Sequence record: PZ386971.1
Reading direction: 5' to 3' (one strand)
DNA: 64,000 nucleotides
Source of the DNA: a phage
Shown: positions 2,212 through 62,915 of the stretch, piece after piece
Numbering within the stretch: the stretch's first letter is position 1
Layout of the letters: each line of letters opens with the position of its first letter
Position numbers and translations under genes: made by a program
The notes under the pieces: model-generated
Seen by the model: the letters and a program-made list of their open reading frames with translations, nothing else
What the model was told of the DNA's origin: nothing
The model's database searches: none

Positions 2212-2263
2212 TCACTAAATATCTTTCAAATTGAGCGAAACTCTACAGAGAAGGAATAAGATT

Positions 2264-4635: not shown

Positions 4636-4992
4636 ATGACCAAGACCGAAATTAACGCTATCCTGAAAGAAATCGGCCTCTGCAACCTGAAACGCCGCGT
4701 CAATCCTTACCAGCCCGCAAAGCCAGTACGCGACAGCCAGGGAAAGATGATAAAAGGGATCTACTGTGCAGATGTTGGCCCAATGACTGTGACCAGTCCA
4801 CACATTGACAGATTTAACGCTATTGTTGAGGAGTTTTGTGGTAAGGTTCTGGGTGAACTAGCTAATGATTTATGCTCCCCAGATACCAAAGTTGTAGCTT
4901 TCGGGAGCCACCTCGTCACATTCCACCTCACCAGCTTCCGTGCCCACGGTGATTATCATGTGTATTATGCTCAGGTTAGCATTCGCAAATAG
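4636..4992 (+). CDS. Hypothetical protein (118 aa)
   Basis: ATG at 4636 preceded by AGGAACTATATC; the track's MKRRNYIM N-terminus is an artefact of an in-frame TTG in the leader. Confidence 0.5.
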   Translation: MTKTEINAILKEIGLCNLKRRVNPYQPAKPVRDSQGKMIKGIYCADVGPMTVTSPHIDRFNAIVEEFCGKVLGELANDLCSPDTKVVAFGSHLVTFHLTSFRAHGDYHVYYAQVSIRK

Positions 4993-4998
4993 CAGTTT

Positions 4999-5022
4999 AC
5001 CCCGCTGAGGCGGGGTTTAGTT
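4999..5022. terminator. Bidirectional terminator hairpin between convergent genes
   Basis: accccgcTGAGgcggggt flanked by T/A runs, between the + ORF ending 4992 and the - gene ending 5017. Confidence 0.5.
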
Positions 5023-6801
5023 TTCCAGTTCATACCGGATAAGACCACACCCCCAGATACGCCCCAACCCGGCTTCCACCGACAGCATATCCTCTGTTTT
5101 GCCTTCTATATCGTATCCAAGTTTAAGGAATTTCTCTTTCCTGAAATTGAATTTGTGTATACGTAAGCTATAGTCTGGTGTCACATATTTGTAATCAGGG
5201 GGAAGGATTTCCTTTTCAACAAATCCGTTATTCAGGTAAACATTTTTCAGACGACTGACAACACAACGATCACCAAAAGAATATACTGTCTCACCCCGAT
5301 GTCGAGCGATATAATATTTCAGCAAGCGTGAGAATGCGCCATGGCAATTGTTAGAAGCAAATCTCACCAATTCAATACCATGCACTCGTTTGGTAAACAA
5401 CATCACCGCCTGGATATTCCCAGTTTTGTCTACAAGGTGTATATAATCTGTCGCCACCACACCACCTTGTATATGGAATCGGTCGAGAAAGTCCTTGGAC
5501 GTCCTATAGGAGCCTTCCAAAATGGTATGTTGGCGAGCGTATGACAATGGTTTCCCTATCCCCAATTTTGCTTTTAGGAGTGATTTAACCACTTCCTGTT
5601 TGTCACGCCACTCATCTTCCCAGATATGGATTAATTGAATACCCTGGGATTCACAGTGCATAGTCTTTTCAAGATGGTAGTCTTTGTATCGATGTTTCTC
5701 CGAATGCCAATACAACCCATTAAATTCTATTGCCAACTTATGTTCTGGGCAGTATATGTCTATCTGGCGTGTGGTCGCCCTCCCGTCGAACATTTTACCT
5801 CTGAGGACGGAGAAATTACCAGATTCATAAACGACACCCAATGAATCCAGGTATGAACATATTTCTATTTCTGGCTGTGTTTGGCTTTGGCTGCTGGGGT
5901 ATGTGAAAGAGTTCCTATATTCTTCAGAAGAGAAATAGTGAGGTACGCCGTATTTTTCTTTTGAAATGATCCTGGTATTGGCCTGGCTTCTATCCCATAT
6001 AGCCTTTACCTTCAACGGATAATCAACCCCATATTTTAAGACGCATGTTTTCTTTCTCTTTTCTATAATGGAATTGAGGAACATTGGATGATCCACACCA
6101 TAGATCTTCCTCCAAGTCTCAATCACCCTTTCCCTCACTTCTGGCATTTTCATGACGTGTGATACGCCATAGCGTTCCATGACAGAAGCAGCCACTCTGT
6201 CCTTTATAACATCAGACTTCATAGGGTGGTCGACCCCATATTTCTTAAGGGCAGTTTCCCGTGACTTTTGTTTTACTTCTTCCAGTTGGAATATGTTGGC
6301 TACGCCATATTTCTCTGTTATGGCGTTTTCTAGGTTGGCCCGTTCTGAGCCTCCCACCTTCATTGATTCTCGTTGGCATTCTTCGGAACAAAACTTTTTG
6401 TATCTGGGCGGTTGGGCTTCCATTTCTAAGCCGACGTCAGCACCGCAAGTGGCACACTGCGACTTCGGAATATCGTACAGCCAAGCAGTTATCGCTTGTG
6501 GTTCTTCTAATAGGTCGTTGTGTGACACCACGTATCCAACAACATCAACCCCAGTATGGGCCGTGAGTAGGGGATGAGAGATAAGTTTGTAGTTCAACGA
6601 ACCATCTTTCTTCCTGAGTTTACTATCAACCCAAGAGCGGCATTCGGTTTCGGTCGTCGGGATGTCATCCAACAAACCCGGATTGCGTTTCATCGTTCCC
6701 AGCATGAATGATTTGCATTCGTCACTACAATACAACGCAGCCTTCCTGGTTGGGGTGAACGGTTTGTGGCAGCATAAACAATTTTTATCGGGGAATGGCA
6801 T
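5017..6801 (-). CDS. Homing-endonuclease-like protein: N-terminal Cys cluster, six tandem KYGV..HP repeats, Vsr/DUF559-like PD-(D/E)XK nuclease domain
   Basis: 594 aa from ATG 6801 (GAGGAT SD); N-terminal CLCCH..C..C; repeats KYGVANI / KYGVDHPM / RYGVSHVM / IYGVDHPM / KYGVDYPL / KYGVPHYF; IDIYCPEHKLAIEFNGLYWHSE...IHIWEDEW resembles the Vsr/DUF559 fold; antisense insertion between conserved sheath and tube genes. Confidence 0.55.
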   Translation of the reverse strand: MPFPDKNCLCCHKPFTPTRKAALYCSDECKSFMLGTMKRNPGLLDDIPTTETECRSWVDSKLRKKDGSLNYKLISHPLLTAHTGVDVVGYVVSHNDLLEEPQAITAWLYDIPKSQCATCGADVGLEMEAQPPRYKKFCSEECQRESMKVGGSERANLENAITEKYGVANIFQLEEVKQKSRETALKKYGVDHPMKSDVIKDRVAASVMERYGVSHVMKMPEVRERVIETWRKIYGVDHPMFLNSIIEKRKKTCVLKYGVDYPLKVKAIWDRSQANTRIISKEKYGVPHYFSSEEYRNSFTYPSSQSQTQPEIEICSYLDSLGVVYESGNFSVLRGKMFDGRATTRQIDIYCPEHKLAIEFNGLYWHSEKHRYKDYHLEKTMHCESQGIQLIHIWEDEWRDKQEVVKSLLKAKLGIGKPLSYARQHTILEGSYRTSKDFLDRFHIQGGVVATDYIHLVDKTGNIQAVMLFTKRVHGIELVRFASNNCHGAFSRLLKYYIARHRGETVYSFGDRCVVSRLKNVYLNNGFVEKEILPPDYKYVTPDYSLRIHKFNFRKEKFLKLGYDIEGKTEDMLSVEAGLGRIWGCGLIRYELEN

Positions 6802-6882
6802 AATAAATATCCTCACTTTGGAGTATTTTAACCCCCATTTATTTCAAAACTAAATATTTACACTATTCAGAGGAGAACGACC

Positions 6883-7416
6883 ATGGCTACAGTTAATGAA
6901 TTCAGAGCAGCTATGTCACGCGGGGGTGGCGTTCAGCGCCAACACCGCTGGCGTGTGACTGTTAACTTCCCTTCCTTCGTGGCTGGAAGCGATACCATCC
7001 GTGATGTTTCGCTGTTGGCGGTGACCACAAATACCCCAACAGGCCAGCTCGGGGAGATACTCGTCCCATGGGGTGGTCGTGAACTTCCATTCCCAGGTGA
7101 CCGTCGTTTTGAGGCTCTGCCTGTAACGTTTATCAACGTTGTGGACAACGCCCCGTACAACGCATTCGAAGTCTGGCAGCAGTACATCAACGGCAGCAAC
7201 AACAACCGTGCGTCTGCTAACCCAGATGATTATTTCCGTGATGTAATCATGGAACTGCTGGATGCGAATGACAATGTCACCAAGACCTGGACCCTTCAGG
7301 GCGCCTGGCCTCAGAACCTCGGTCAGCTGGAACTGGACATGTCTGCAATGGACTCTTATACTCAGTTCACTGTTGACCTGCGTTACTTCCAGGCCATTTC
7401 AGACAAGTCTCTCTAA
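6883..7416 (+). CDS. 19: Tail tube protein (T4 gp19-like)
   Basis: 177 aa; C-terminal TWTLQGAWPQNLGQLELDMSAMDSYTQFTVDLRYFQ parallels T4 gp19 KGLWPTNVGELQLDWDSNNEIQTFEVTLALDYWE. Confidence 0.85.
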   Translation: MATVNEFRAAMSRGGGVQRQHRWRVTVNFPSFVAGSDTIRDVSLLAVTTNTPTGQLGEILVPWGGRELPFPGDRRFEALPVTFINVVDNAPYNAFEVWQQYINGSNNNRASANPDDYFRDVIMELLDANDNVTKTWTLQGAWPQNLGQLELDMSAMDSYTQFTVDLRYFQAISDKSL

Positions 7417-7482
7417 TGTCCTCAGTGCTGGGGGATCTATATTCCCCCTCACTAATTACAAGAAAATGTTGAGGACTTAATC

Positions 7483-9177
7483 ATGGCATTCGGTAATGGT
7501 GCATTCGGAAATGGGTTCTTCGGCTTGTTCGGCAGAGGCGGCAAAGTAGAAGCGCCGATTGATACCGACAAGATGGTCACGAACCAAGAAGAGAAGTTGC
7601 TTTCAAAAGCGACTGTTGTTGCGCTGGACGATTCTCAGGATGGTTCGATCATCCTCCAGGGCGGCGCGAACACATTCAATTTCGTTGGTGTTGAGAATGA
7701 GTTGCTCAACGTCAAACAGCTGGTCGAAGAGTACCAGTCTATGGCTCAGCAGCCTGAGATTCGTAAGGCTGTGGATATCATTGTCAACGACATCGTCACC
7801 TGTGAAGAGGACGAGACTCCTGTAACCATCAACCTGGAAAAGGTAGATGGCATCACAAACGAAGTCAAAGAGAAGATCACTGAAGCATTCAAAGAGATCA
7901 TGCATCTCCTTGACTTTGACAACACGGCGTATCAGAAGATCCGCAAATGGTATATTGAAGGCCGTCAGGCATTCCACGTTGTAGTGGACCCGAAGAACAA
8001 GAAAGCGGGTATCGCCAAACTCATCATGATGGACTCACGCTGTATCCGCCCAGTGTACATCGTTCAAAAGGCGATGCGCGACGGTATCGAAGTCATCAAT
8101 GACGTAAAACTTCAATACTACTACAACCCGAACTACAACCGCAACCAATTCACTGGCCAGTCCGGTACGTCTCAGAACTTCCAACCGTCACAGCAAGAGC
8201 TGGTGTTCGACGATGAGAGCATCGTGTATCTGGACAGTGGTGAAGAGCCTCTGGCGAATGGGGTTGTACCAAGCCTGCTGAACCCAGCTATCCGTCCCCT
8301 GAACAACCTTGTTACAACTGAAGATGCAACTGTGATCTATGCGATCACACGTGCTCCTGAGAAGCGAGCGTTCTATCTCGACGTGGGTACGCTGGGTAAG
8401 AAGTCGGCCGAAGAATACATGCAAGCCATGATGGGCAAATTCAAGAACCGTCTGGCGTATGATCGCACCACTGGTAAGGTGGCTGGTAACACTCATTTGA
8501 TGGGTATCGCTGAGGACTACTGGCTGCCACGTCGTGAAGGACAGAACGCAACCGAGATCTCCAACGTAGGCGGTGGCGATCAACTGGGTCAAATGGATCA
8601 TGTGGTATACTTCCGCGAGAAGCTCTACGAGGCTCTGATGATCCCTAAGAGCCGCCTGCAAGAGGAAGGTTCCATCAACATCGGTGGTTCCAATCTTGCT
8701 GAAATCACACAGGAAGAATTGCGCTTCAACAAGTTCTGTGCGAGCCTGCGCCGTCGTTATTCTTCTGGTATCTTCCTGGAACTTCTGCGCCGTCAGCTGA
8801 TATTGAAAGGCATTACAGATCAGGCTGACTGGAATGAGAAGATCAAGCCGTTCGTCAAGTTCGAATTCACTTCTGACAGCTTCATCCGTGAACAACAAGA
8901 GAACGAAATCTTGTCACAGCGTATGGCGGCTCTCGGTCAGATCGAACCATATATCGGCACTCTCTTCTCTATCGATTTTGCTCAACGCAATTTGCTGCGT
9001 ATGTCCGATGAAGACATCAAAGACCAGCAAGAGAAGATCGCGAAAGAGAAGAAAGAAGGCAAATACCCTGAAGTGCAGGCAGATGAGTCCGGCGGCTTCG
9101 GCAGCGGGGAAGTCAGTCCACTGAAATTCAGACCTAACGTCATCCCAGCGACTAACCCTCCTGGTGGTGAAGAATAA
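7483..9177 (+). CDS. 20: Portal protein (T4 gp20-like)
   Basis: 564 aa; located between tube and prohead protease as in T4; size close to gp20. Confidence 0.8.
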   Translation: MAFGNGAFGNGFFGLFGRGGKVEAPIDTDKMVTNQEEKLLSKATVVALDDSQDGSIILQGGANTFNFVGVENELLNVKQLVEEYQSMAQQPEIRKAVDIIVNDIVTCEEDETPVTINLEKVDGITNEVKEKITEAFKEIMHLLDFDNTAYQKIRKWYIEGRQAFHVVVDPKNKKAGIAKLIMMDSRCIRPVYIVQKAMRDGIEVINDVKLQYYYNPNYNRNQFTGQSGTSQNFQPSQQELVFDDESIVYLDSGEEPLANGVVPSLLNPAIRPLNNLVTTEDATVIYAITRAPEKRAFYLDVGTLGKKSAEEYMQAMMGKFKNRLAYDRTTGKVAGNTHLMGIAEDYWLPRREGQNATEISNVGGGDQLGQMDHVVYFREKLYEALMIPKSRLQEEGSINIGGSNLAEITQEELRFNKFCASLRRRYSSGIFLELLRRQLILKGITDQADWNEKIKPFVKFEFTSDSFIREQQENEILSQRMAALGQIEPYIGTLFSIDFAQRNLLRMSDEDIKDQQEKIAKEKKEGKYPEVQADESGGFGSGEVSPLKFRPNVIPATNPPGGEE

Positions 9178-9214
9178 TTCGACTAAGTATAGAAAACATT
9201 TAGAGGATATGAAC

Positions 9215-9385
9215 ATGGCCGCTATCGATCTGGTAAAAGCAATCATCGCTGGTGATACTGATGCCGCTGCTGCTGAATGCGAAATGGAGCTGTCCACTCG
9301 CGCCCAAGAACTGGTCCAGCAGGGTACTGAATATGTCTTGAACTCCCTGAGCCAAGACATGGGTCCTTTCGGCGACGACCAGTAA
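9215..9385 (+). CDS. Small acidic protein, possible prohead core protein (gp67-like position)
   Basis: 56 aa from ATG with GAGGA SD; lies between portal and protease where T4 encodes gp67/gp68. Confidence 0.35.
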   Translation: MAAIDLVKAIIAGDTDAAAAECEMELSTRAQELVQQGTEYVLNSLSQDMGPFGDDQ

Positions 9386-10388: not shown

Positions 10389-10398
10389 CACTAAATAC
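10389..10398 (+). promoter_or_regulatory. Late-promoter-like motif CACTAAATAC
   Basis: Variant of T4 TATAAATA placed 27 nt upstream of the scaffold ATG; same motif upstream of several other late genes. Confidence 0.35.
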
Positions 10399-10424: not shown

Positions 10425-11276
10425 ATGAAACCTGAATTGCAAAAACTGTTTGAGGGCGTTAACGGCCTCAGCACCGACTTCCTGGATAAAGTGTCTGGTC
10501 TGCTGGAATCTAAAGTAGAAGCCGCTCGCCTGACCGCTATTCAAGAAACCGAAAACGCTGCCAATATTGAGCGCCTGCGTCTGGTTGAAGCTCATCAGGC
10601 TGAGATTGCTCAGCTGAAAGAGTCTCACTTGATGGAAATTGCGACCAAAGTCGATGGCTTCCTGAACGCGGTTGTAGAAGAGTGGGCTAACAAGAACGCT
10701 CCTGCCATCGACGCTCAGATCAAACGTGAAGCGGCTGAAAATCTGCTGGCTGGCCTGACTGGTGTTCTGAAAGAAGCTGGTATCAACTTTGCCACCGACG
10801 AAAACGGCCAGATCGCTGCGCTGACTGCCCGCCTGACCGAAGCAGAACGACGTGCTGCGATTGCCGAAAGCGAAAACCGTCAAATCAAAGAAGCCGCGAA
10901 TGCGACTCTGCGTGACTCTGTGATCGCCCGTATCTGTGAAGGTATGGTCGACACCAAGAAAGCAACGGTTGTCAATCTGCTGGAAGCTGTGCAGTTCACC
11001 ACCGAAAGCGAATTCGCTTCCCGCGTACACACCTTCCGCAACCTGGTAGAAGGTAAGTCCGTGAAGAAAGAAGGCGATGACGATGACGATGACTTCCAAG
11101 ACAAAGTCGGCGGAAAAGACGGCGATGACGACAACAAAGATGTTAAAGCCGAAGGCAAAAAGCCTAAGAAAGAAGGCGATGAAGATGACGATGAAGATGA
11201 AACAGACAAAGAGCTGAAAGAATCTATCAAGCGTCAGTTGGCCGACTATAATCGTCGCTTCGGCATCAACGGCTAA
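10425..11276 (+). CDS. 22: Prohead scaffold protein (T4 gp22-like)
   Basis: 283 aa, alpha-helical and charge-rich with acidic tail (KEGDDDDDDFQDK...DEDDDEDE); between protease and major capsid gene. Confidence 0.7.
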   Translation: MKPELQKLFEGVNGLSTDFLDKVSGLLESKVEAARLTAIQETENAANIERLRLVEAHQAEIAQLKESHLMEIATKVDGFLNAVVEEWANKNAPAIDAQIKREAAENLLAGLTGVLKEAGINFATDENGQIAALTARLTEAERRAAIAESENRQIKEAANATLRDSVIARICEGMVDTKKATVVNLLEAVQFTTESEFASRVHTFRNLVEGKSVKKEGDDDDDDFQDKVGGKDGDDDNKDVKAEGKKPKKEGDEDDDEDETDKELKESIKRQLADYNRRFGING

Positions 11277-11367
11277 TTTTAGCAGCCACAGCCCTCGAAA
11301 GGGGGCTTGATTTTGAACTACTAAGTAATTTCAACTTAACTGAATATCAATGTAAGGAATGACCATC

Positions 11368-12693
11368 ATGGCTAAGAAACTTGTTACCGAACAAATGCGC
11401 GAGCAGTGGCTGCCAGTTCTTCAGAAAGAATCTGAAAGCATCCAGCCGCTTTCTGCCGAAAACGTTGCCGTCCGTCTGCTGCAAAACCAGGCTGAGTGGA
11501 ACGCCAAAAACCTGGGCGAATCCGACGCTCCTGGCTCCGTGAACGCCTCTGTGGGCAAATGGCAGCCAGTCCTGATCGACATGGCCAAACGTCTGGCTCC
11601 GGTCAACATCGCGATGGACTTCTTCGGCGTTCAGCCGCTGTCTGGTCCTGACGGTCAGATCTTTGCTCTGCGTGCTCGCCAGGGCATTTCAGACGGCGGA
11701 TCCAACACCCAACATTCCCGTAAAGAACTGTTCATGCAGGAAGCTGATTCTGGCTACTCTGGTGACGACACTGCTCAGGCTGGCGACCCATCTGGCTTTA
11801 CCCAGACTGAGATCGAAGGTTCCGGCGCTGCCACCACCACCATCGGTAAAGGCATGTCAACTTCCGACGCTGAACTGCTGGGCACCACCACTAACCCATG
11901 GGCACGTGTTGGTATCACCGTTCAGAAAGCAACCGTGACTGCGAAGTCTCGCGGCCTGTACGCTGACTACAGCCATGAACTGCGCCAGGACATGATGGCG
12001 ATCCACGGCGAAGACGTTGACAGCATCCTGTCCGACGTGATGGTAACTGAAATTCAGGCAGAGATGAACCGTGAGTTTATCCGCACCATGAACTTCAGCG
12101 CAGTACGCTTCAAAAAATTCGGCACCAACGGTATCGTAGATATCTCCACTGACATCTCCGGTCGTTGGGCGCTGGAAAAATGGAAGTACATGACTTTCAT
12201 GCTGGAAGTCGAAGCGAACGGCATCGGTGTTGACACCCGTCGTGGTAAAGGCAACCGTGTTCTGTGCTCCCCGAACGTAGCATCCGCTCTGGCGATGTCC
12301 GGCATGCTGGATTATGCTCCGGCGCTGCAGGAAAACACCAAGCTGGCGATTGATCCGACTGGCCAGACCTTCGCTGGTGTGCTGTCTAATGGTATGCGTG
12401 TCTACATCGACCCGTATGCAGTAGCAGAGTACATCACCCTGGCATACAAAGGCGCAACCGCGCTGGATGCTGGTATCTTCTTCGCCCCATACGTTCCGCT
12501 GGAGATGTACCGCACCCAGGGTGAAACCACCTTCGCTCCACGCATGGCGTTCAAGACCCGCTACGGGATTTGTGCCAACCCGTTCGTTCAGATCCCAGCG
12601 AACCAGGATCCACAGGTCTATGTGACTGCGGATGGTATCGCCAAGGACACCAACGTGTATTTCCGCAAAGGGTTAATTAAGGGACTTTTCTAA
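11368..12693 (+). CDS. 23: Major capsid protein (T4 gp23-like)
   Basis: GVQPLSGPDGQIFALRA vs T4 GVQPMNSPTGQVFALRA; GVLSNGMRVYIDPYA...AYKGATALDAGIFFAPYV...FKTRYGI vs T4 GVLGGKYRVYIDQYA...GYKGPNEMDAGIYYAPYV...FKTRYGI; start at ATG 11368 with AAGGAA SD. Confidence 0.95.
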   Translation: MAKKLVTEQMREQWLPVLQKESESIQPLSAENVAVRLLQNQAEWNAKNLGESDAPGSVNASVGKWQPVLIDMAKRLAPVNIAMDFFGVQPLSGPDGQIFALRARQGISDGGSNTQHSRKELFMQEADSGYSGDDTAQAGDPSGFTQTEIEGSGAATTTIGKGMSTSDAELLGTTTNPWARVGITVQKATVTAKSRGLYADYSHELRQDMMAIHGEDVDSILSDVMVTEIQAEMNREFIRTMNFSAVRFKKFGTNGIVDISTDISGRWALEKWKYMTFMLEVEANGIGVDTRRGKGNRVLCSPNVASALAMSGMLDYAPALQENTKLAIDPTGQTFAGVLSNGMRVYIDPYAVAEYITLAYKGATALDAGIFFAPYVPLEMYRTQGETTFAPRMAFKTRYGICANPFVQIPANQDPQVYVTADGIAKDTNVYFRKGLIKGLF

Positions 12694-15261: not shown

Positions 15262-15302
15262 CATATCATAAATAATTTGAGTACACACAGCGGAGATACA
15301 TC

Positions 15303-15473
15303 ATGTTTGTCGTCATCAATCTGTTCTGCTATATCTTCACGGCGTACTTCTTGGGCGCGGTATGGATCGAGACCTACAATGACCTGAAGGATGGGGAATA
15401 CGCCAACCGAATGGTTTATGTCAAGAAGTTTGTTCGTAAGTTCTGGTCCAACTTCGTTTACAAACTACCATGA
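15303..15473 (+). CDS. Small predicted membrane protein (56 aa)
   Basis: Not in the ORF track (under 60 aa); GGAGA SD; hydrophobic helix MFVVINLFCYIFTAYFLGAVW. Confidence 0.35.
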   Translation: MFVVINLFCYIFTAYFLGAVWIETYNDLKDGEYANRMVYVKKFVRKFWSNFVYKLP

Positions 15474-15511
15474 TCCCTAAATACCCCCATCATCCATGGG
15501 GGTATTTTCTT

Positions 15512-16240
15512 ATGAACGCACAGATCTATGACGCCCTATCGCAGGGCAACGCCTTTACCAATCCTCTCCCGTCCCTCAGCAGCGCCTCACAGGGGTTAAT
15601 CACCAGTGGTAAGGCGACTACAGCGTCACTGGCTAACACCGGAAATACGCAGATTCAGGAAGCGCTGACGGCAGGTGGGTTGACTACAGCCAAACTCAAC
15701 GAATCTACGGCGATGTTCAACTCAGCAAACACCAGCATCACCACGCTGATCAACTATGGCGACCAGTCAGTGAACGAGGCATATTCCCGCATCGGTACAT
15801 CTGTGTCGTATAAGTCCGCCCTGAAGTCTATAGGTCGAGAACCGAACAACTGTGATCTGATCAATAATGCATTTGGGGTTATTCAGAACCTCGGCAAACA
15901 GTGGATCAATACCATGCAAAGTGTTCTCACAACTATCACAAACAAGATGAATGAGTTGGCTGAATTGGTAGCTCAGGGTGTCAGTGCTGGTCTTGATGCT
16001 ATTCGGGCACTGGCTGCTGAAGTTACTCAGGCCATCGACACTGCTGTCGCATCAGTAGCCTCTATTGCTCAGGACATCACGAACGGTATTGCAGCAGAGT
16101 TAGCCCATATCCAAGACATGGTTGGTAAGTGTCTTAACTTCTCTTTTGCCAACGTGATCTCAGAGTGGGCGAAAGATATCTGCGCCGGAGGTGTCATCAA
16201 CAGCATTGGTTCCGATAATCTGAAGAACGCACTGAAGTAA
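15512..16240 (+). CDS. Hypothetical alpha-helical protein (243 aa), possibly late or virion-associated
   Basis: ATG 15512 preceded by late-like motif CCTAAATAC inside a hairpin; Ala/Thr/Ser-rich helical sequence. Confidence 0.5.
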   Translation: MNAQIYDALSQGNAFTNPLPSLSSASQGLITSGKATTASLANTGNTQIQEALTAGGLTTAKLNESTAMFNSANTSITTLINYGDQSVNEAYSRIGTSVSYKSALKSIGREPNNCDLINNAFGVIQNLGKQWINTMQSVLTTITNKMNELAELVAQGVSAGLDAIRALAAEVTQAIDTAVASVASIAQDITNGIAAELAHIQDMVGKCLNFSFANVISEWAKDICAGGVINSIGSDNLKNALK

Positions 16241-17932: not shown

Positions 17933-18679
17933 ATGGCATCTCTCCAGGATCTACGCAAGCTGAATGACTTCGAAAACCGCCATTACACATTCCAGCAGTA
18001 CGAACTTCCTTACAAGGAACTGGAGTGTGTGACGACGGAAAACGGTCGTCATTATGTATCGCCGACTGGCGTCAAGCTGACATCCGTCACGACTATGCTG
18101 GGGCGTACTGGTGATCATGAATGGCTTGAGGCTTGGAGGAAGAAGCTAGGTGCAGAGGCCGCCGACCTTGAGACCATGCGTTGCGCTGACCGAGGGGAGA
18201 AGCTGCACCTTGCATGCGAACTGTATTTGAAGAACCGCCCAATGAAAGAAGTGTTGGAAGCGGCTGGCGAATACATGTTCATGTTCAAGCAGCTGTTCCC
18301 CTATCTGAACAAGATGACAAAGATCTATGCTCAGGAGATCCCATTATACAGCGAGGTGCTTGGTCTTGCAGGTCGAGTGGACCTTATTGGGATTTATGAG
18401 GGTAAACCTGCTATCATCGACTTCAAGACATCGAACATCATGAAGACGCGGGGAATGATCGAGGACTACAGTATCCAGCTGTGCTTATATTCGGTCATGT
18501 TCCAGCAGATGTTCGGTGTCAAGATCACCCGCCTCATCAATGTGATCGCCAACGAGTCTTCCCCTCTACCAACCGTCATTGAGTTCAACCGTGATGACAT
18601 CCTGACAAAGATGTTTGAGCGTGTTCGTCTGTACCATCGCATGGATAAAGAACAGAACGGAGTCTGGCCAGATCACTAA
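17933..18679 (+). CDS. PD-(D/E)XK nuclease, Cas4/RecB-like
   Basis: 248 aa; GRVDLIGIYEGKPAIIDFKTS (D...D/ExK) followed by QLCLY (QxxxY motif). Confidence 0.6.
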   Translation: MASLQDLRKLNDFENRHYTFQQYELPYKELECVTTENGRHYVSPTGVKLTSVTTMLGRTGDHEWLEAWRKKLGAEAADLETMRCADRGEKLHLACELYLKNRPMKEVLEAAGEYMFMFKQLFPYLNKMTKIYAQEIPLYSEVLGLAGRVDLIGIYEGKPAIIDFKTSNIMKTRGMIEDYSIQLCLYSVMFQQMFGVKITRLINVIANESSPLPTVIEFNRDDILTKMFERVRLYHRMDKEQNGVWPDH

Positions 18680-18683
18680 ATAC
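18674..18683 (+). promoter_or_regulatory. Late-promoter-like motif CACTAAATAC upstream of uvsW
   Basis: Same motif as upstream of the scaffold gene, about 25 nt before ATG 18708. Confidence 0.3.
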
Positions 18684-18707
18684 CCCATAATTCTTGGGAG
18701 ATTTTGT

Positions 18708-20216
18708 ATGGCAGACATCCAGATTGTTAAGGTTAATGAAGTCCGCATGCGTTGCATCGCAGATCTTTCTATCAGGGAAGAACTGAATGACTACTTCAAA
18801 TTCGAAGACCCGAACTTCGTTCCCAACCCCTTCTCTAAATGGGACGGGGTTGTTCGCTTGTTCACCAAGTCATCCGGCCTGATTGATATCGGCCTACTGT
18901 TTGAGGTGTTCAAGTTCTGCAAGAACAACAACTACACCATTGAACTGGATCCGGCTCTGAAGTACATTCAGGACATCCCAGACCAAGAAATCCATGACTT
19001 CATCAACAGTCTGCATCCAAAGATCCGCACCGAAAATCACGAATATATCGATGCCGAGACTCGTGACTACCAGTACGACACCATCGCCAAGGCTATGCGT
19101 CAAACCAGATGCGTCTGTGAACTGGCTACGAGTGCCGGTAAGTCCTTTATTCTGTATGTCATGGCGCGGTACTACAGGCAGCGCAGAGAAGCTCTCGAAA
19201 GTCCTCTGAAGACGCTTATCGTGGTTCCGTCAATTCACCTGGTCACTCAGCTGTACGACAACTTTGAAGAGTACGCACACGGCAGTGATTGGAAGCCCGT
19301 TGTCAACACTCAATTGATCTTTGAGGGCGCGACAAAGGAAATCAGCAAACCAATCGTCATCAGTACATGGCAGGGTATTCAAGACCAGCCGAAGGAATGG
19401 TTCCACCAGTTCGGTGATATCGTGGTGGATGAAGTGCACACCTCCAAGTCTGAGAAACTGTCTTACATCCTAAACAACTGCATCTATGCCGACCAGCGCC
19501 TGGGGGTTACAGGTACGCTGGCGAATACCAAAGTTGCCGGGCTTCAGGTGGTGGCTCACTTCGGGGCGTACCATAAGATCATCACGGCTCGCGATCTTAT
19601 CAATCTCGGGTACGCCACTGACATCAAAGTGAAGATGATTCAGCTGAAGCACACTCCGGCGGATGCTGTTGGTCTAGACGGGGATTATTCCAAGGAAATA
19701 GAATACCTTATCACACACCAGTCCCGCAACGAACTGATCGCCAAGATGGCACTGAATCTGAAAGGAAACGTGGCCATCATGTTCGAACGTATTGATGGTC
19801 ACATGATGGTCGTGTATGATATGCTGAGCGCAGTCAAGCCCAACGTGTTTGTCATCAACGGGGAAGTGAAGATCGAAGACCGCCGCCGCATACAGAAAGC
19901 GATGGAGGATGGAGAGGACATCACCCTGTTGGCATCATACGGGACAATGCAGCAGGGAGTGTCGATCAAGAAGCTACACCACCTTGTACTGGCACACCCG
20001 AGCAAGTCATATATCCGCGTCATACAGACATTGGGTCGTCTGATGCGTCAGCACTCCTCTAAGGACGTCGCGTGGATATGGGACTTAGTGGATGATGCAT
20101 CGTACAACGCCAGCACGAACCACGCTCTTAGGCACTCTCACGAGCGTTACAAGTTTTACCTGGCAGAGCGCCACCCTGTGGAATTCATGAAGGTGGCGCT
20201 GGGTAATCACGATTAA
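18708..20216 (+). CDS. uvsW: UvsW SF2 helicase
   Basis: ELATSAGKS Walker A, DEVH box, QPKEWFHQFG and KKLHHLVLAH match T4 UvsW QPKEWFSQFG and KNLHHVVLAH. Confidence 0.9.
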   Translation: MADIQIVKVNEVRMRCIADLSIREELNDYFKFEDPNFVPNPFSKWDGVVRLFTKSSGLIDIGLLFEVFKFCKNNNYTIELDPALKYIQDIPDQEIHDFINSLHPKIRTENHEYIDAETRDYQYDTIAKAMRQTRCVCELATSAGKSFILYVMARYYRQRREALESPLKTLIVVPSIHLVTQLYDNFEEYAHGSDWKPVVNTQLIFEGATKEISKPIVISTWQGIQDQPKEWFHQFGDIVVDEVHTSKSEKLSYILNNCIYADQRLGVTGTLANTKVAGLQVVAHFGAYHKIITARDLINLGYATDIKVKMIQLKHTPADAVGLDGDYSKEIEYLITHQSRNELIAKMALNLKGNVAIMFERIDGHMMVVYDMLSAVKPNVFVINGEVKIEDRRRIQKAMEDGEDITLLASYGTMQQGVSIKKLHHLVLAHPSKSYIRVIQTLGRLMRQHSSKDVAWIWDLVDDASYNASTNHALRHSHERYKFYLAERHPVEFMKVALGNHD

Positions 20217-20948: not shown

Positions 20949-21617
20949 ATGCAAGAGATCACTCTCTCCGAACGTACACTTCAGTTGCTGGCCAACTTTG
21001 AGACCATCAACCCATCTATCGTCCTGACACCGGGTAAGATGCTGCGCAGCATTAACGATTCGTCTACTGTTATCGCCGTGGCACAGATCGAAGAAGACTT
21101 CCCGTTTGAGTTCCCTATCCTGGACCTGACCAAACTTCTGGCCATCCAGCGCCTGCCTTCCTTCAAAGGTGGTAAAGCCGAATTCCATCAGGACTACATC
21201 CTGTTGAAAGGCGAAAACTCTCAGCTGCAATTCTGGCGTTCTGCTAAAGAACTCACTGTTGTTCCGGCTGACACCATTGAACTGCCGTCTGTCGACTTTG
21301 AAGCGATCATCACTCCAGAGAAGATGAAAGAACTGACCCGCGCCTGTTCTACCCTCGGACACAAGACTGTGCGCCTGGTTGCTCAGGGTGGCAAAACTCG
21401 CCTGGTTGCAACCACCACTACCCTGGACAACTCCAACAACTACACTGTTGAGCTGGGCGAAACCGCGCTGCCGGACTTCGTAATGCCGCTGGATGTTGCC
21501 AACCTGAAAATGATCGAAGGCAACTACACTCTGCGTGCCTGTGCTGATCTACAGATGGTGAACTTCCAATCATCCGACGCGACGATCAATTACTTCGTCG
21601 GCGCACAGATTGAGTAA
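20949..21617 (+). CDS. 45: Sliding clamp (T4 gp45-like)
   Basis: 222 aa; LLANFETINPSIVL and NLKMIEGNYTL resemble T4 gp45 LLKNFATINSGIML and NMKMQPGNYKL. Confidence 0.85.
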   Translation: MQEITLSERTLQLLANFETINPSIVLTPGKMLRSINDSSTVIAVAQIEEDFPFEFPILDLTKLLAIQRLPSFKGGKAEFHQDYILLKGENSQLQFWRSAKELTVVPADTIELPSVDFEAIITPEKMKELTRACSTLGHKTVRLVAQGGKTRLVATTTTLDNSNNYTVELGETALPDFVMPLDVANLKMIEGNYTLRACADLQMVNFQSSDATINYFVGAQIE

Positions 21618-22691: not shown

Positions 22692-23114
22692 ATGGCCGCC
22701 CTTGGATTGTTCGATTACCTGTCTGCTCTGAACAGCAGCAAAGAAAACCTTCTGCGGACTGATGACCCAGAAGTGTTGAAAGGATTCGACCCGTTTATGA
22801 CGCGGCGTGGTTTAGCTCAGAGCAAAGACACTCTAGTGACCGCTCAGCAGATGAACAAACTGCATGCTGTTACTCCATGGATGCAATGGTCATATGCCTT
22901 TCACACCATTCCGGCGCGGAAACGCTACGACAAATGGTCTAAGAAAGGTCCGATTGATCCTGACGTGAAGTTACTCTCCGAGTACTTCTACATCAGCATG
23001 GAGAAGGCATCCGAGTACGTCCGTTTCTTGCCGAAGGAAGTCCTGGCCGAAATACGCGAGAAGATGAGACGCACTGAGCTGAACGCCAAAGCGAAACCGC
23101 GCAAGGCTAAGTAG
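22692..23114 (+). CDS. 62: Clamp loader small subunit (T4 gp62-like)
   Basis: 140 aa; ARKRYDKWSK resembles T4 gp62 RGKRYGKWAK; follows gp44 gene. Confidence 0.7.
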   Translation: MAALGLFDYLSALNSSKENLLRTDDPEVLKGFDPFMTRRGLAQSKDTLVTAQQMNKLHAVTPWMQWSYAFHTIPARKRYDKWSKKGPIDPDVKLLSEYFYISMEKASEYVRFLPKEVLAEIREKMRRTELNAKAKPRKAK

Positions 23115-23143: not shown

Positions 23144-23608
23144 ATGGCGCGCAATACGCTAGACATATTGAACATTTCAGCCGTCAACGATGAGGCCAGC
23201 ATCGTTGATTGTATGGTTGAAGTTCAATTGAACCAAGATCGGCCAGGAATATTCCTGGGGATCAAGGAAACACTGAGCCGGATTGGGGTAAACACGCGCC
23301 AAGAGCCGAATACTCTGTATCAGACTTGCCATATTCTTCATAAGTGTGGTAAGTATTATATCGTCCACTTTAAGCATCTATTCATGCTGGACGGGCATTA
23401 CAACGGATTTAACCGCGAAGATGTCCTGAGGATGAACCGCATCATCAAGCTGCTGGAGCAGTGGAACATGGTGAAGGTCATTCATCCCGAGCAGGTCACC
23501 GAAGCCGCCGATATGTCACGCATTAAAGTGGTTAAACACGATCAGGTTCCTGAATGGAAGCTGGTCCCAAAATACATTATCCGGCCTACGAAGGCCAAGA
23601 GCGAATAA
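23144..23608 (+). CDS. regA: RegA translational repressor
   Basis: LYQTCHILHKCGKYYIVHFKHLFMLDG and EWKLVPKYIIRP match T4 RegA LYQSCHILQKKGLYYIVHFKEMLRMDG and EWKLVPKYTIG. Confidence 0.85.
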   Translation: MARNTLDILNISAVNDEASIVDCMVEVQLNQDRPGIFLGIKETLSRIGVNTRQEPNTLYQTCHILHKCGKYYIVHFKHLFMLDGHYNGFNREDVLRMNRIIKLLEQWNMVKVIHPEQVTEAADMSRIKVVKHDQVPEWKLVPKYIIRPTKAKSE

Positions 23609-33273: not shown

Positions 33274-33300
33274 GGCGGGGTATGATTACCCCGTCTATTT
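33274..33300 (+). terminator. GC hairpin GGCGGGGTATGATTACCCCGTC + TATTTG (type B, copy 1)
   Basis: 31-bp element identical to the one at 33833. Confidence 0.5.
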
Positions 33301-33832: not shown

Positions 33833-33859
33833 GGCGGGGTATGATTACCCCGTCTATTT
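33833..33859 (+). terminator. GC hairpin GGCGGGGTATGATTACCCCGTC + TATTTG (type B, copy 2)
   Basis: Exact repeat of 33274 element. Confidence 0.5.
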
Positions 33860-41407: not shown

Positions 41408-41452
41408 AGTTTCATTCCTCTTTCTATAAAACCAGTTTGGGATATTTATATC

Positions 41453-41991: not shown

Positions 41992-42783
41992 ATGGGAATG
42001 AACTTCGTGGACAGAGGGGAGAATGTCGTCAAATATTTCACGGACGAAGACAACGAGCGTGTCATTAGTATCCTTCGTGATTGGATCCCCGCCCGCAAGA
42101 AAGCACTTGCTGAGGGCACCAGGCTTCCAAAGATCCCCAACTATGTTGCTCTGCAGGTCCAGCGCATCATCACCAAGATGAGTACCCGCTACAACTATCG
42201 CGACTATCCCTTCCGTGAAGACATGGTCTCTGAAGCAATAGTCAACATCCTGCGCTACCTCCACACCTTTGACGTCGAACACATTGGAAAGAAAGGGAAG
42301 ATCAACTTCTTCTCTTGGGTGACCATGTGCGCTGATCGATCATTCGCTCGTAAACTGAATATCGAAGAAGAACACACGTACATCAAATTGCGCTCATTTG
42401 AAGAGGCGGGTGGGTTCGCAGGCCTGGCAGACGATCCCGACTTCCAACAAGAGATCTTTGTTGACGCGACAGGGATTGGTATGGACTTCCGTGAGCGTAT
42501 CGGTAACTTTGAGAACAAAAAGGACGCTCAAAGGCAGAAGGAGCGAGAGAAGGTGGAGGCGGCTCGTCTCGCAGAATCGAATAAAAAGATTGCGAAAGGC
42601 ATACTTCAATACATGGCGCAGGCTAAGAATACGGTAACAGCGCAGGCCGAAGACAATTCAGATCAGGACTTTGGCAAAACCCAATTCAATCTGGAAGATG
42701 ATATCTGTGCGATGGAACCAGATTGGGAAGCCCTCAAACAAAGATTAGAAGAACGGGAGAAAAAGAATAATGGCGATTGCTAA
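41992..42783 (+). CDS. 55: Late sigma factor (T4 gp55-like)
   Basis: NFFSWVTMCADRSFARKLNIEEEH resembles T4 gp55 [24 protein letters not shown]; lies upstream of gp47/gp46 as in T4. Confidence 0.6.
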   Translation: MGMNFVDRGENVVKYFTDEDNERVISILRDWIPARKKALAEGTRLPKIPNYVALQVQRIITKMSTRYNYRDYPFREDMVSEAIVNILRYLHTFDVEHIGKKGKINFFSWVTMCADRSFARKLNIEEEHTYIKLRSFEEAGGFAGLADDPDFQQEIFVDATGIGMDFRERIGNFENKKDAQRQKEREKVEAARLAESNKKIAKGILQYMAQAKNTVTAQAEDNSDQDFGKTQFNLEDDICAMEPDWEALKQRLEEREKKNNGDC

Positions 42784-46981: not shown

Positions 46982-46991
46982 GGCTGAAGGG

Positions 46992-47001
46992 CACTAAATA
47001 C
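46992..47001 (+). promoter_or_regulatory. Late-promoter-like motif CACTAAATAC in a hairpin loop
   Basis: gggcac-TAAATACCAC-gtgccc; same motif class as at 10389 and 18674. Confidence 0.3.
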
Positions 47002-47080
47002 CACGTGCCCTTTATCTTTTAACCCCTGTCAGGAGGCTCAAGCGAGCTGCAAGTCGACAAACCACATAAGGAACGCCATC

Positions 47081-47695
47081 ATGACGATGACAACGTTGAA
47101 GGCCATGGCCTTGTCCGTGACCTTTACCATTGCCAGCGGGAATGTGCACGCTTCCCAAAATACAAGTCAATGTGTTTATGATTTCTCTGAGCAACAACTT
47201 AATACGATGGCAACCGCCTATCACGTAGGCAAGACACAAGATCTTGGCTACACTCTGGCCGCCATATCTTGGCGAGAGAGCCGCGCTGGTGAAGATGTAG
47301 TGTCAATGCGATACGGCCTCAAGGCGGCCAACATGGGAGCCTTCCAGAACAAGGTGAAGACAGTTGGTGATCGCGAAGGTTGTAAGAATCGCAAGTGCTA
47401 TGCCAATGTCGCCATAAAGTTGCTGACCGACCAAGAATATGCCGCGCAAGCCGCCCTCGATGAGATACAGTTCTGGCTGACCTATCACAATCAGAATATC
47501 CGCAAATCCCTCTCCTCTTACAATGCTGGCTTCGCCCGTAATCCCGCATCGAACGCTTATGCTGCTGACGTCGTGAAGAAAGCTAAATATCTTCAGAAAT
47601 GTGTGTCTTTCGAAGGCCGGACCATCTCCGAGGTAGATCCTCAGGTGATCGCCATGAACAAGCACACAATAGAGAAACTGAAGAGGACAAGATAA
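47081..47695 (+). CDS. Secreted protein with lytic-transglycosylase-like motif
   Basis: Signal-peptide-like N-terminus MTMTTLKAMALSVTFTIASGNVHA; ISWRESRAG...GAFQ weakly resembles the SLT ES/GLMQ motifs. Confidence 0.4.
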   Translation: MTMTTLKAMALSVTFTIASGNVHASQNTSQCVYDFSEQQLNTMATAYHVGKTQDLGYTLAAISWRESRAGEDVVSMRYGLKAANMGAFQNKVKTVGDREGCKNRKCYANVAIKLLTDQEYAAQAALDEIQFWLTYHNQNIRKSLSSYNAGFARNPASNAYAADVVKKAKYLQKCVSFEGRTISEVDPQVIAMNKHTIEKLKRTR

Positions 47696-49073: not shown

Positions 49074-49148
49074 GATAAGGGGGCTGACGCTCCCTTTTGG
49101 TTTCGCTAATTAGAAGAAACCGCCGTTAATTCAATCAGGAGATATAAA

Positions 49149-52133: not shown

Positions 52134-52189
52134 TCATTGAAAGCCCCTTCGGGGGCTTATAAATAACTGAAATCCCCGAGGAGATTAAG

Positions 52190-52759: not shown

Positions 52760-52852
52760 AAGGTTGCACTAGACGACGCCACGGCGAAAGAACTTGGTCT
52801 GTAACTGGATCCCCCTAAATACAGGGGGATTTCTTTTTCTGAGGACAACATC

Positions 52853-53206
52853 ATGGTCAACGCTAGTATTTTCATCAACCGTGGATTGCTTGCTATAGCC
52901 CACTCTCATGCCTTACACTTCGTTACAACGTCCTATGCCAAGCACAAGGCACTCGGGGAGTTCTACGGGGAACTGGAGGACTTACTAGACACGTTTACCG
53001 AAGCATACATCGGCGCGGGTGGTCAGTATGTTCCATCATTCGAGAATATCAAATTGTACAATCCTGATCCGATATCGTATATCAACAGCGTAATCATCGA
53101 CGTCAATGGGATCTACAATCAATGTGACAGCCATTTACAAAACACGCTTGACGAAATCAAAACTCTGTGCTATCAAACGATTTACAAACTGAAGCAACTG
53201 GCGTAG
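52853..53206 (+). CDS. Hypothetical protein (117 aa)
   Basis: Preceded by ccccc-TAAATACA-ggggg hairpin carrying the late-like motif. Confidence 0.45.
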   Translation: MVNASIFINRGLLAIAHSHALHFVTTSYAKHKALGEFYGELEDLLDTFTEAYIGAGGQYVPSFENIKLYNPDPISYINSVIIDVNGIYNQCDSHLQNTLDEIKTLCYQTIYKLKQLA

Positions 53207-55516: not shown

Positions 55517-55548
55517 TTTACTCTTCAATAATAGCGCACTATTATAAT
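55517..55548 (+). promoter_or_regulatory. Strong early promoter with AT-rich upstream element (-35 TTTACT, 17 bp, -10 TATTATAAT)
   Basis: aaaataattttaaaaaattattgaaaaagaCTTTACTcttcaataatagcgcacTATTATAAT. Confidence 0.5.
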
Positions 55549-56106: not shown

Positions 56107-56252
56107 TCCAGACGTGTAACATAGGGGAGGCAACTCCCCCTATCAGGTCTTGGGAGGAGATCACAGTCATTCAATCCTCTTTGGTGCTCTCTGGGTTGCT
56201 GACACATCCAGAACAAAGTCTCCCCCAGCTCCTCGAGTAGTTCACTTTCACT

Positions 56253-56262
56253 TTAAATACCT
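56253..56262 (+). promoter_or_regulatory. Late-promoter-like motif CTTTAAATAC upstream of endolysin
   Basis: About 27 nt upstream of ATG 56289; the SD GGAGGT lies in a possible hairpin acctcTGCATTCATTGTGgaggt. Confidence 0.3.
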
Positions 56263-56288
56263 CTGCATTCATTGTGGAGGTATTTCTT

Positions 56289-57083
56289 ATGGCCATTCTA
56301 AAACTTGGCAACCGTGGCACTGAAGTGAAGGCACTTCAGGATAGCCTCAACAAAATCGGCTTCACCCTCGTCGCTGATGGTATCTTTGGCAAGGCAACAG
56401 AGAACGCCGTCAAGACTGTTCAGGCGGGTGCGGGGCTTGTCATCGATGGTATCGTGGGTCCAAAGACCTCCTATGCTATTCGCAACGCCGGAGACGCCCA
56501 TCAGGATCATCTAACTGAGTCAGACCTGATTGATGCTGCTAACGATCTGGGTGTTGACCTCGCCTCTGTCAAGGCGGTGAATCAGGTTGAGTCGCGCGGC
56601 ACGGGCTTCACCAAGTCAGGTAAGATCAAGACATTATTTGAGCGCCACATCATGTATAAGAAGCTGATGGCGAAGTTCGGACAGGCTCGGGCGAATGCCA
56701 TGGGACATATGTACCCGACGTTGGTCAGTCCTTCCGCAGGCGGGTACACGGGAGGCGACGCGGAGTTGGATCGACTTCATGCGGCCATCAACATCGATGA
56801 GGATTGTGCGTACGAGAGCGCCTCTTACGGTCTCTTCCAGATCATGGGATTCAACTGCCAGGTCTGTGGATACGCCAACGCCAAGGAGATGTTCAACGAC
56901 TTCCTGACAGGAGAACGTGCTCATTTGATGGCATTCGTGAAGTTCATCAAGGCTGACGCCAAGCTCTGGCAGGCTCTGAAGGACAAGAACTGGTCTGAAT
57001 TTGCACGGCGCTATAATGGTCCGGCGTATGCCAAGAACCAGTACGACAAGAAGCTCGCAGCAGCATACAAGAGTTTCAGTTAA
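56289..57083 (+). CDS. Endolysin: peptidoglycan-binding domain + DUF3380-type muramidase domain
   Basis: N-terminus LKLGNRGTEVKALQDSLNKIGF...DGIFGKATENAVKTVQ (PG_binding_1-like); C-terminus ESRGTGF...SYGLFQIMGFN...WSEFARRYNGP. Confidence 0.8.
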   Translation: MAILKLGNRGTEVKALQDSLNKIGFTLVADGIFGKATENAVKTVQAGAGLVIDGIVGPKTSYAIRNAGDAHQDHLTESDLIDAANDLGVDLASVKAVNQVESRGTGFTKSGKIKTLFERHIMYKKLMAKFGQARANAMGHMYPTLVSPSAGGYTGGDAELDRLHAAINIDEDCAYESASYGLFQIMGFNCQVCGYANAKEMFNDFLTGERAHLMAFVKFIKADAKLWQALKDKNWSEFARRYNGPAYAKNQYDKKLAAAYKSFS

Positions 57084-58028: not shown

Positions 58029-58111
58029 GTAACTCGCCAACCCTCCCCGCCGCCTTCAATCTACGAGGGCGGCGTATAATAAAACCTGCGTAAACAAACC
58101 CGAGGAACACC

Positions 58112-62453: not shown

Positions 62454-62915
62454 ATGACAAACAAAGTACTCACCAACCCACTGCACAACTTCGGTTACAT
62501 TCAACTCCCTCTGGTGATCGACACCCTGTACGCCGACGACAAAGAAGAGATCTGCTGGTCACCCACCGCACTGATTGAACGCGAAATCTTCAAGTCTGTT
62601 GTTGATGTCATGTTCCGTATCGGTCGCAATGGACCTCTGGTCTACCTCGGCAAGGTGACTGAGTTGAAGACAAGCCACAACGAACGCTTCCTTCGTATCG
62701 ATACAACGGGGTGCTCTCATCAGGACTTCAACACATTGCGCAATTATGTTCTGGTCAACCGCCCGGTCAGTCAACACCGCCCGTATCTGACGTCAATGCA
62801 CATCGACAATTTCATCACCGACGTACACCTCCGCGCCGAAACCCTCCATGAAGAGGAAACAGGCCGAGCTATCGACACAGTCTTAAATATGGTTGTGATC
62901 ACCCTGGCGGAGTAG
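62454..62915 (+). CDS. Hypothetical protein (153 aa)
   Basis: ATG preceded by AAGGAACTATATC. Confidence 0.5.
   Translation: MTNKVLTNPLHNFGYIQLPLVIDTLYADDKEEICWSPTALIEREIFKSVVDVMFRIGRNGPLVYLGKVTELKTSHNERFLRIDTTGCSHQDFNTLRNYVLVNRPVSQHRPYLTSMHIDNFITDVHLRAETLHEEETGRAIDTVLNMVVITLAE

Follow-up and report, generated by a model that had tools for sequence, protein, structure and literature searches.

A CTAAATA-type box as the probable late promoter of an Ackermannviridae phage and its association with leader hairpins

The box CACTAAATAC at positions 10389-10398 (plus strand) of the phage sequence record PZ386971.1 lies 27 nucleotides (nt) before the ATG at 10425 of a gp22-like prohead core/scaffold gene, directly 3' of a hairpin that spans the gp21 stop codon. 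The window, that is, the whole stretch of 64,000 nt that was analyzed, holds similar words before other genes, and the question raised by this locus is what such a word does there. A first-pass annotation had taken it for a variant of the T4 late promoter in which C rather than TA precedes TAAATA, and had listed eight sites. It is highly probable that the box is the -10-like element of the late promoters of this phage, read by the host core polymerase with a gp55-type sigma factor. The observations made here are the motif statistics, the positions of the box, its conservation, the predicted folds around it and three protein homologues.

The stretch of about 4 kb around the 10389 box is 98.6% identical to Escherichia phage vB_EcoM-RPN242 (Ackermannviridae, Aglimvirinae) and also matches 287 ViI-like phages, whose hosts include Salmonella, Klebsiella, Escherichia, Dickeya, Serratia and others. 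Judged by its sequence, the window belongs to an Ackermannviridae phage (Aglimvirinae, Agtrevirus-like). Its gene map was made by carrying over the RPN242 gene calls by tblastn, with open reading frames (ORFs) used to fill gaps. About 93% of the window is coding (6.8% non-coding), and nearly all genes are on the plus strand. The complete RPN242 genome was put together from four pieces and has 195 annotated coding sequences; 194 genes were tested in the k-mer screen described below.

The ten-letter form CMCTAAATAC, or C(A/C)CTAAATAC, has five copies in the window, all on the plus strand (10389, 15475, 18674, 46992 and 52813), against 0.14 expected, and none of 100 shuffles reaches five. These are five of the eight sites listed by the first-pass annotation. 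The other three are partial matches, found before the sheath gene at 2213 (CACTAAATAT), the tube gene (AACTAAATAT) and the endolysin gene (CTTTAAATAC); the last two had been slightly misregistered and lie at 6848-6857 and 56251-56260. The distance of 25-45 nt to the gene that had been given for all eight applies to seven, where the end of the box is 25-42 nt from the ATG, but not to 46992, where it is 80-86 nt. The core CTAAATA has eight copies in the window, again all on the plus strand, against 3.7 expected (3 of 100 shuffles reach eight). Seven of these copies are at least partly non-coding. Six start 25-60 nt upstream of a same-strand start codon, a zone for which 2.3% of positions qualify (binomial p = 4e-9). 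The same zone holds 12 of the 21 window copies of TAAATA (p = 6e-15) and 17 of the 29 copies of (C/A/T)TAA(A/G/T)TA (p = 6e-21).

Motif discovery on the complete genome, which had been proposed as a check, also favors the box. Every k-mer was counted in the -60 to -15 windows of the 194 RPN242 genes and compared with the whole genome. TAAATA ranks first among the 6-mers (30 of 63 copies upstream, p = 4e-31), CTAAATA among the 7-mers (16 of 20, p = 7e-23) and CTAAATAC among the 8-mers (11 of 12, p = 2e-17). The next unrelated word upstream of genes is TATAAT, and no other candidate late promoter surfaced in these upstream windows. In the window, the hexamer starts 30-48 nt before the ATG of the sheath, tube, gp22, uvsW and endolysin genes, of the genes at 15303, 15512, 52190, 52853 and 62921, and of the minus-strand gene at 41407. 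The box-bearing virion genes of RPN242 include those for sheath, gp22, gp14, gp4, gp2 and gp5, a gp6-like wedge gene and three tail-spike/fibre genes; uvsW, endolysin and a 4.8-kb gene annotated in SFP10 as 'phage structural protein' also carry the box. The genes downstream of the box are mostly virion and other late-type genes.

The box is not a single fixed word. Single-base variants of CTAAATA that change position 1 (to A or T) or position 5 (to G or T) are often upstream of start codons in the window; other single-base variants mostly are not, with a few scattered exceptions such as CTAAACA (3 of 6 copies). CTAAGTA is upstream of genes in 3 of 3 window copies (capsid, the gene at 9215 and regA) and CTAATTA in 2 of 4 (portal and a 994-amino-acid gene at 49149). 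From these variant positions and from base swaps at orthologous sites, the working consensus is read as (C > A, T)TAA(A > G, T)TA. Among the 39 sites of this consensus in the complete RPN242 genome, position 1 is C in 22, A in nine and T in eight. Therefore, the claim that C takes the place of TA before TAAATA stands only in part: C is preferred but not obligatory, two boxes of the window read TATAAATA as in T4, and the endolysin site has T. With G or T also accepted at position 5, the regulon would extend to the major capsid and portal genes.

The box is kept at orthologous sites in Limestonevirus, Kuttervirus and Taipeivirus, the 10389 box included, and is largely kept in two Vibrio relatives. 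Across genera the box is invariant at orthologous sites while flanks, stems and loops diverge. Position 5 is where orthologous sites exchange A, G and T. Before the gene after portal (9215 here), the box is CTAAGTA in Aglimvirinae but CTAAATA in Kuttervirus and Taipeivirus, and Klebsiella phage Magnus carries CTAATTA at the site that corresponds to 46992. In the Vibrio relatives both the capsid and the portal box are CTAAATA, the capsid site of GR28A reading CCCTAAATACC and the portal site of Vibrio phage D504 reading CTACTAAATACC.

An alignment of the 39 RPN242 sites was used to look for other promoter features. A -35 element was not found, as all 40 positions upstream of the box have 0.21 bit or less. 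C is mildly preferred at the four bases following the box, and A is frequent at the sixth nt after it (22 of 39 sites, p = 4e-5) and at the seventh (21 of 39, p = 2e-4). Since the T4 box spans -13 to -6, this A enrichment falls at the predicted +1.

The proteins that would be needed are also encoded. The ORF at 41992-42783 (plus strand, 263 amino acids), which had been called a gp55-like sigma, matches PHROG 234, late sigma transcription factor (E = 3.4e-52, 174 of 181 profile positions), and its orthologues are annotated as gp55 or late sigma in CBA120, LIMEstone1, SFP10 and Magnus. It has no match in Pfam or in a PDB sequence search; it is identified because of the PHROG profile and the annotation of its relatives, and these only. 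By tblastn (E <= 1e-3) it reaches gp55 of cyanophages and of Vibrio and Stenotrophomonas phages, and no T4-type coliphage or Aeromonas record is among the matches tallied or listed. Since no T4-type coliphage is among the listed matches, the protein seems to be a distant member of the family. A gp45-like sliding clamp gene is at 20949-21617 (plus strand; PHROG 223, E = 2.3e-64), with a weak match to Pfam gp45-slide_C. The gp33 homologue is outside the window and was found in the RPN242 genome (gp060, PHROG 254, E = 3e-20). RPN242 also carries pyrophosphorylase and kinase genes that correspond to ViI-like thymidine hypermodification. In ViI-like phages about 40% of thymidines are replaced by 5-(2-aminoethoxy)methyluridine (PMC5889632). 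The late box is T and A only except at its first base, so promoter recognition may take place on hypermodified DNA.

The late-promoter reading of the first-pass annotation is therefore supported, as far as sequence goes, by the enrichment, the gene set, the conservation, the missing -35 element, the A enrichment at the predicted +1 and the gp55, gp45 and gp33 homologues. The host RNA polymerase core with the gp55-type sigma would recognize the box, presumably with the gp33 and gp45 homologues as in T4. The predicted point of initiation is an A that follows the box by 6-7 nt, and the consensus has no -35 element. The predicted targets in the window are the sheath, tube, portal, scaffold, capsid, uvsW and endolysin genes and several small genes without an assigned function. 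The binding of gp55 to the box, the start site, the late timing and the translational gating discussed below are predictions of this scheme.

Other explanations of the box were considered. An A/T-rich word might recur by chance, and plain CTAAATA is just about twice its shuffle expectation in the window (8 vs 3.7). However, its strand, its position (window, p = 4e-9; complete genome, p = 7e-23) and its cross-genus conservation are far from random; chance recurrence was rejected as refuted by the positional statistics and the conservation, and its likelihood is negligible. The box might also be a weak sigma-70 -10 hexamer that serves the unmodified host polymerase as an early or middle promoter, since it is A/T-rich and upstream of genes, where TATAAT is likewise enriched. 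TAAATA, however, agrees with TATAAT at only three of six positions and does not have the final T. The genes served are mainly virion genes, and the sigma-70-like motif of the phage group, TTCAAT-N14-TATAAT, is a separate element located elsewhere. None of the sigma-70-like matches on the plus strand coincides with any of the eight listed box sites; the sigma-70 -10 reading was rejected on this count and for want of a -35 signal, and it is extremely unlikely.

Two further explanations would leave the box with a function, but not that of a -10 element. It could act at the RNA level, as the A-rich 5' flank of terminators or regulatory hairpins in which TAAATA pairs with a T-rich tail, TATTT. At many sites AAATA does pair with TATTT at the base of a strong hairpin, and in the annotation of Klebsiella phage Magnus these hairpins carry the label 'terminator'. 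Roughly half of the box sites, however, lack a hairpin of this kind (sheath, tube, gp22, 15268, 52158, 41443 and gp5), at two sites the box is unpaired in a loop, and the box is invariant while stems and loops vary. Nor does terminator geometry account for the exact hexamer, its constant spacing from the ATG or the A found at the predicted +1. The reading as a terminator A-tract was rejected on the hairpin folds, and an RNA-level function in general is very unlikely. It is just as improbable that the box is the binding site of another phage or host regulator, such as the homologue of a 'starvation-inducible regulator' or the FmdB-like protein, and marks a regulon without being a -10 element. 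Such regulator genes do occur in the genome, and what binds the box is not identifiable from sequence alone. Against this, the box is asymmetric, single-copy and always directed at a gene with promoter-like spacing; it is only one or two positions away from the T4 gp55 box; the gp55, gp33 and gp45 set is present; and the k-mer screen yields no alternative late-promoter candidate.

As a late promoter, the box is found in three settings relative to hairpins. In the first setting it comes right after an intrinsic terminator, where it would re-start transcription late. Terminator-like hairpins are immediately 5' of the portal, capsid, 49106, 52158 and gp22 boxes. In the second setting the box is in the loop of a terminator; the late transcript would begin in the 3' arm and could not fold the terminator. 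The first-pass annotation had seen the box in the loop of a GC-stem hairpin at three sites, and this is the case at 46992 and 52813 but not at 15475, where the box is in a hairpin arm. At 46992 (box 46992-47001, element 46987-47020, plus strand) the stem 46987-46994 / 47005-47012 (AAGGGCAC / GTGCCCTT) closes a 10-nt loop that holds the box, and a T-rich tail comes next in a terminator-like layout; this hairpin is kept in SFP10. At 52813 (box 52813-52822, element 52807-52842, plus strand), 31 nt before the ATG at 52853, the stem-loop 52807-52832 (GGATCCCCCT / AGGGGGATTT) has the box across the 6-nt loop AAATAC and the adjoining stem bases and is followed by the T-rich tail CTTTTTCT. It is the top terminator-like call in its region and is kept in Magnus and SFP10. 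Both loop-type hairpins are kept in Kuttervirus and Taipeivirus.

In the third setting (15475, 56251 and, more weakly, 18674) a hairpin has the box as its 5' arm and the Shine-Dalgarno sequence in its 3' arm. RNA that reads through from upstream would have its ribosome-binding site buried, while in late RNA that starts inside the hairpin the site would be free. The box CCCTAAATAC (15475-15484, element to 15507, plus strand) makes up the base of the 5' arm in a 12-bp hairpin (15479-15490 / 15496-15507, AAATACCCCCAT / ATGGGGGTATTT), and the 3' arm carries a G-rich Shine-Dalgarno sequence 9 nt before the ATG of the gene at 15512. The predicted fold is -19.5 kcal/mol for the long RNA vs -5.7 for RNA from the predicted +1, and the hairpin-box is kept in eight distinct relatives. 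The endolysin box CTTTAAATAC belongs to an element at 56251-56285 (plus strand) before the ATG at 56289, in which a 13-bp hairpin (AAATACCTCTGCA / TGTGGAGGTATTT) has a GGAGG Shine-Dalgarno sequence in its 3' arm. Here the predicted fold changes from -18.3 kcal/mol (long RNA) to -1.2 (predicted late transcript), and the hairpin is kept in eight distinct relatives, with wobble-compatible changes in all but one. The uvsW box CACTAAATAC (at 18674, element 18674-18707, plus strand; uvsW ATG 18708) is followed by a weaker hairpin that overlaps a GGGAG Shine-Dalgarno sequence, with a fold of -15.6 vs 0.0 kcal/mol from the predicted +1. The TAA of this box doubles as the stop codon of the upstream nuclease gene.

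The association of the box with hairpins extends to the complete RPN242 genome. In 17 of 30 box genes, the stretch made up of the box and the 5 nt that follow it pairs with the 25 nt ahead of the ATG, compared with 29 of 164 other genes (Fisher p = 2e-5), and pairing of the Shine-Dalgarno region involves 8.1 of 12 nt in box genes vs 5.6 of 12 in others (p = 3e-5). The layout is kept in all relatives sampled, with about eight distinct sequences per site and mostly one-sided wobble changes. In the annotation of phage Magnus, the hairpins labelled as terminators overlap the annotated ribosome-binding site. Two gene pairs of RPN242 that lie outside the window, gp4/gp030 and gp2/gp057, diverge from back-to-back boxes at 19111/19140 and 39095/39121; these boxes form an inverted repeat (TAAATA ... 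TATTTA), and in both transcripts each box pairs with its partner's complement.

This arrangement has been shown by experiment for the T4 genes e, soc, 49 and I-TevI, whose ribosome-binding site is buried in early read-through RNA but exposed in late RNA initiated within the hairpin (PMC3014915). Taken together, the analysis leaves it evenly balanced whether the Ackermannviridae late box does double duty at most late genes. It would then act also as a hairpin 5' arm (TAAATAcCcc, with cCcc as the anti-Shine-Dalgarno part) that blocks or terminates read-through and buries the ribosome-binding site, so that only gp55-initiated transcripts are translated from the tail-spike, neck, endolysin and other genes, and its degenerate position 5 would add capsid and portal. 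Such an anti-Shine-Dalgarno role of the strand would explain the 'cCcc' tail of the published motif. Neither generalized hairpin gating nor the degeneracy of position 5 was found stated in the literature searched.

Several points weigh against the late-promoter reading. The position-5 variants have small window counts (3/3 and 2/4), and paralogous tail-spike leaders inflate some of the genome-wide counts in RPN242. The 46992 box is unusually distant from its gene (80-86 nt). Some box-bearing genes are not classic late genes (regA, the 'starvation-inducible regulator' homologue and small ORFs without an assigned function). A CTAAATA at 47583-47589 is in a coding region and may be either chance or an internal late promoter; it precedes the annotated start at 47695 by 112 nt and an in-frame ATG at 47599 by 10 nt, and it is also present in RPN242. 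The hairpins could alternatively be terminators only. The literature searched yielded no transcriptome or start-site mapping of any Ackermannviridae phage, nor start-site, timing or gp55 binding data for this phage or any other of the family, and a 2024 Ackermannviridae review does not mention promoters.

The other box sites differ in their surroundings. The sheath box CACTAAATAT (2213-2222, plus strand) is 42 nt before the tail sheath ATG at 2264 and 1 nt past the TerL stop codon (TGA 2209-2211), and CACTAAATATCTTTCAAATTGAGCGAAACTCTAC is kept there in 5 of 5 enterobacterial genomes compared. The tube box AACTAAATAT (6848-6857, plus strand), 26 nt before the tail tube ATG at 6883, is part of a palindrome, TAAATATTTA (6851-6860), that also faces a minus-strand homing-endonuclease ORF at a promoter-like distance. 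Relatives without the endonuclease insert carry CTAATTA at the equivalent place. The endonuclease-like ORF (599 amino acids, 5017-6816, minus strand) lies between the sheath and tube genes and has only 42% identity to the endonuclease located after the capsid gene in RPN242. The two boxes with the T4 consensus TATAAATA are at 52158-52165 (plus strand), 24 nt before the ATG at 52190 and directly after a terminator hairpin, and at 41443-41450 on the minus strand, with 35 nt separating it from the ATG (41407) of a gene on that strand; here the SFP10 orthologue reads TATAAGTA. An ATAAATA box (15268-15274, plus strand) is 28 nt before the ATG at 15303, and a TTAAATA box (62883-62889, plus strand) lies in the terminal part of the preceding gene, 31 nt from the ATG at 62921.

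The position-5 variants are all on the plus strand. CTAAGTA is found at 11321-11327, 40 nt before the major capsid protein ATG at 11368 and just past a terminator hairpin; at 9183-9189, where 25 nt separate it from a small gene that lies downstream of portal and starts at 9215; and at 23107-23113, 30 nt before the ATG of the regA homologue at 23144. The regA box is polymorphic at the degenerate position, as CTAAGTA here corresponds to CTAAATA in the 98%-identical RPN242 (86608). CTAATTA is found at 7452-7458 (context CACTAATTAC), 24 nt before the portal ATG at 7483, and at 49106-49112, 36 nt before the ATG at 49149 of the 994-amino-acid gene. Both are just past a terminator hairpin, and the latter is kept in Magnus and SFP10.

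The window has other leader elements besides the box. A conserved translation-initiation context, G(G/A)(A/G)ACTATATCATG, has nine plus-strand copies vs 0.09 expected, at the starts of small ORFs (ATGs at 4636, 13298, 14090, 33320, 33879, 37237, 48738, 62203 and 62454). For three ORFs (4636, 33320 and 62203) it points to a corrected start codon, and it could be the operator of a RegA-like translational repressor (23144-23608). An exact 25-nt direct repeat, GGCGGGGTATGATTACCCCGTCTAT, which forms a GC-rich hairpin, is present at 33274-33298 and 33833-33857 before two of the small ORFs with this context and looks like a duplicated terminator/leader cassette. The 75-nt leader at 47012-47086, between the loop box of 46992 and the gene at 47087, is near-invariant across Agtrevirus-like, Taipeivirus and Kuttervirus genomes; it has AGGAGG, a small GCTC/GAGC hairpin and no obvious ORF. 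No known RNA family was found by an Rfam search of the whole window, this leader included. The sigma-70-like motif TTCAAT-N14-TATAAT is found at 58055-58080 before the nrdA homologue, with an N13 version at 55524-55548; it is the other published motif of the phage group (quoted in PMC7283392).

The discovery is modest, as the motif is already in the literature. It does provide a usable late-promoter model for annotating Ackermannviridae, namely xTAAxTA about 30-50 nt before the ATG, and these phages are widely used in biocontrol and therapy. The sequences suggest that C at -12 is tolerated or preferred by the gp55-family sigmas of at least two distant lineages. The embedding of boxes in hairpins may also indicate how tail-spike, neck and lysis genes stay silent until late. 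This matters for the engineering of tail-spike swaps, since a gene exchanged along with its leader would bring a different promoter and a different putative translational gate.

The late-promoter finding is correct but already known, since the motif has been published for ViI-like phages and for Aeromonas phage Aeh1, and the idea of a diverged gp55 that reads CTAAATA is likewise in the literature. The original source of CTAAATAcCcc is the 2012 'Viunalikevirus' genus paper of Adriaenssens et al. CTAAATAcCcc is quoted as a regulatory motif of ViI-like phages ('Viunalikevirus', now Ackermannviridae) in the EspM4VN genome paper (PMC7283392). Phage group and sequence are the same here; the sites at 15475 and 18674 match in full (CTAAATACCCC from 15477 and 18676), and several RPN242 tail-spike leaders read CTAAATACCCC as well. 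Unlike this fixed word, the core here is (C/A/T)TAA(A/G/T)TA, with variant boxes that cover capsid and portal, and the cCcc tail is found in only about half of the sites, where it is the anti-Shine-Dalgarno hairpin arm. According to the 2011 CBA120 paper, the sequence recognized for late transcription in the ViI family was still unidentified; the 2011 AG3 paper sought late promoters with TATAAATA and one mismatch allowed, and the LIMEstone paper reports 33 late promoters by similarity to T4 with no sequence in its text.

In Aeh1 the late-promoter consensus is CTAAATA from -12, with an unusual C, and gp55 is strongly diverged from that of T4 (Nolan et al. 2006, PMC1524935). The 7-mer is identical here, C replaces the A of T4 at -12, and the box is likewise upstream of T4 late gene orthologues. 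The lineage is a separate one, however, with no Aeromonas gp55 among the tblastn matches listed (E <= 1e-3), and the common preference for C may be convergent or ancestral. The T4 late promoter TATAAATA, which works with gp55, gp33 and gp45, is also a single short -10-like element without a -35 region, and TAAATA is common to both systems. The predicted start 6 nt past the box, the homologues of all three proteins and the two perfect TATAAATA boxes in the window add to this likeness. Unlike in T4, C is preferred at -12, -13 is not conserved and -8 is degenerate (A, G or T). The gp55 homologue has 263 amino acids, and T4 gp55 has 185.

The order of elements in the endolysin leader (56251-56291), i.e. 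box, anti-Shine-Dalgarno arm, loop, Shine-Dalgarno arm and ATG, is that of the T4 gene e group (PMC3014915), and the predicted late start of endolysin falls past the 5' arm. In T4 this layout is limited to a handful of genes, whereas here it is predicted for 17 of the 30 box-bearing genes, tail-spike and neck genes included. What this analysis adds to the known systems, on the evidence of the genomes compared, is the apparent degeneracy of position 5, the A at the predicted +1 and a pervasive fusion of the box with hairpins predicted to pair with the ribosome-binding region.

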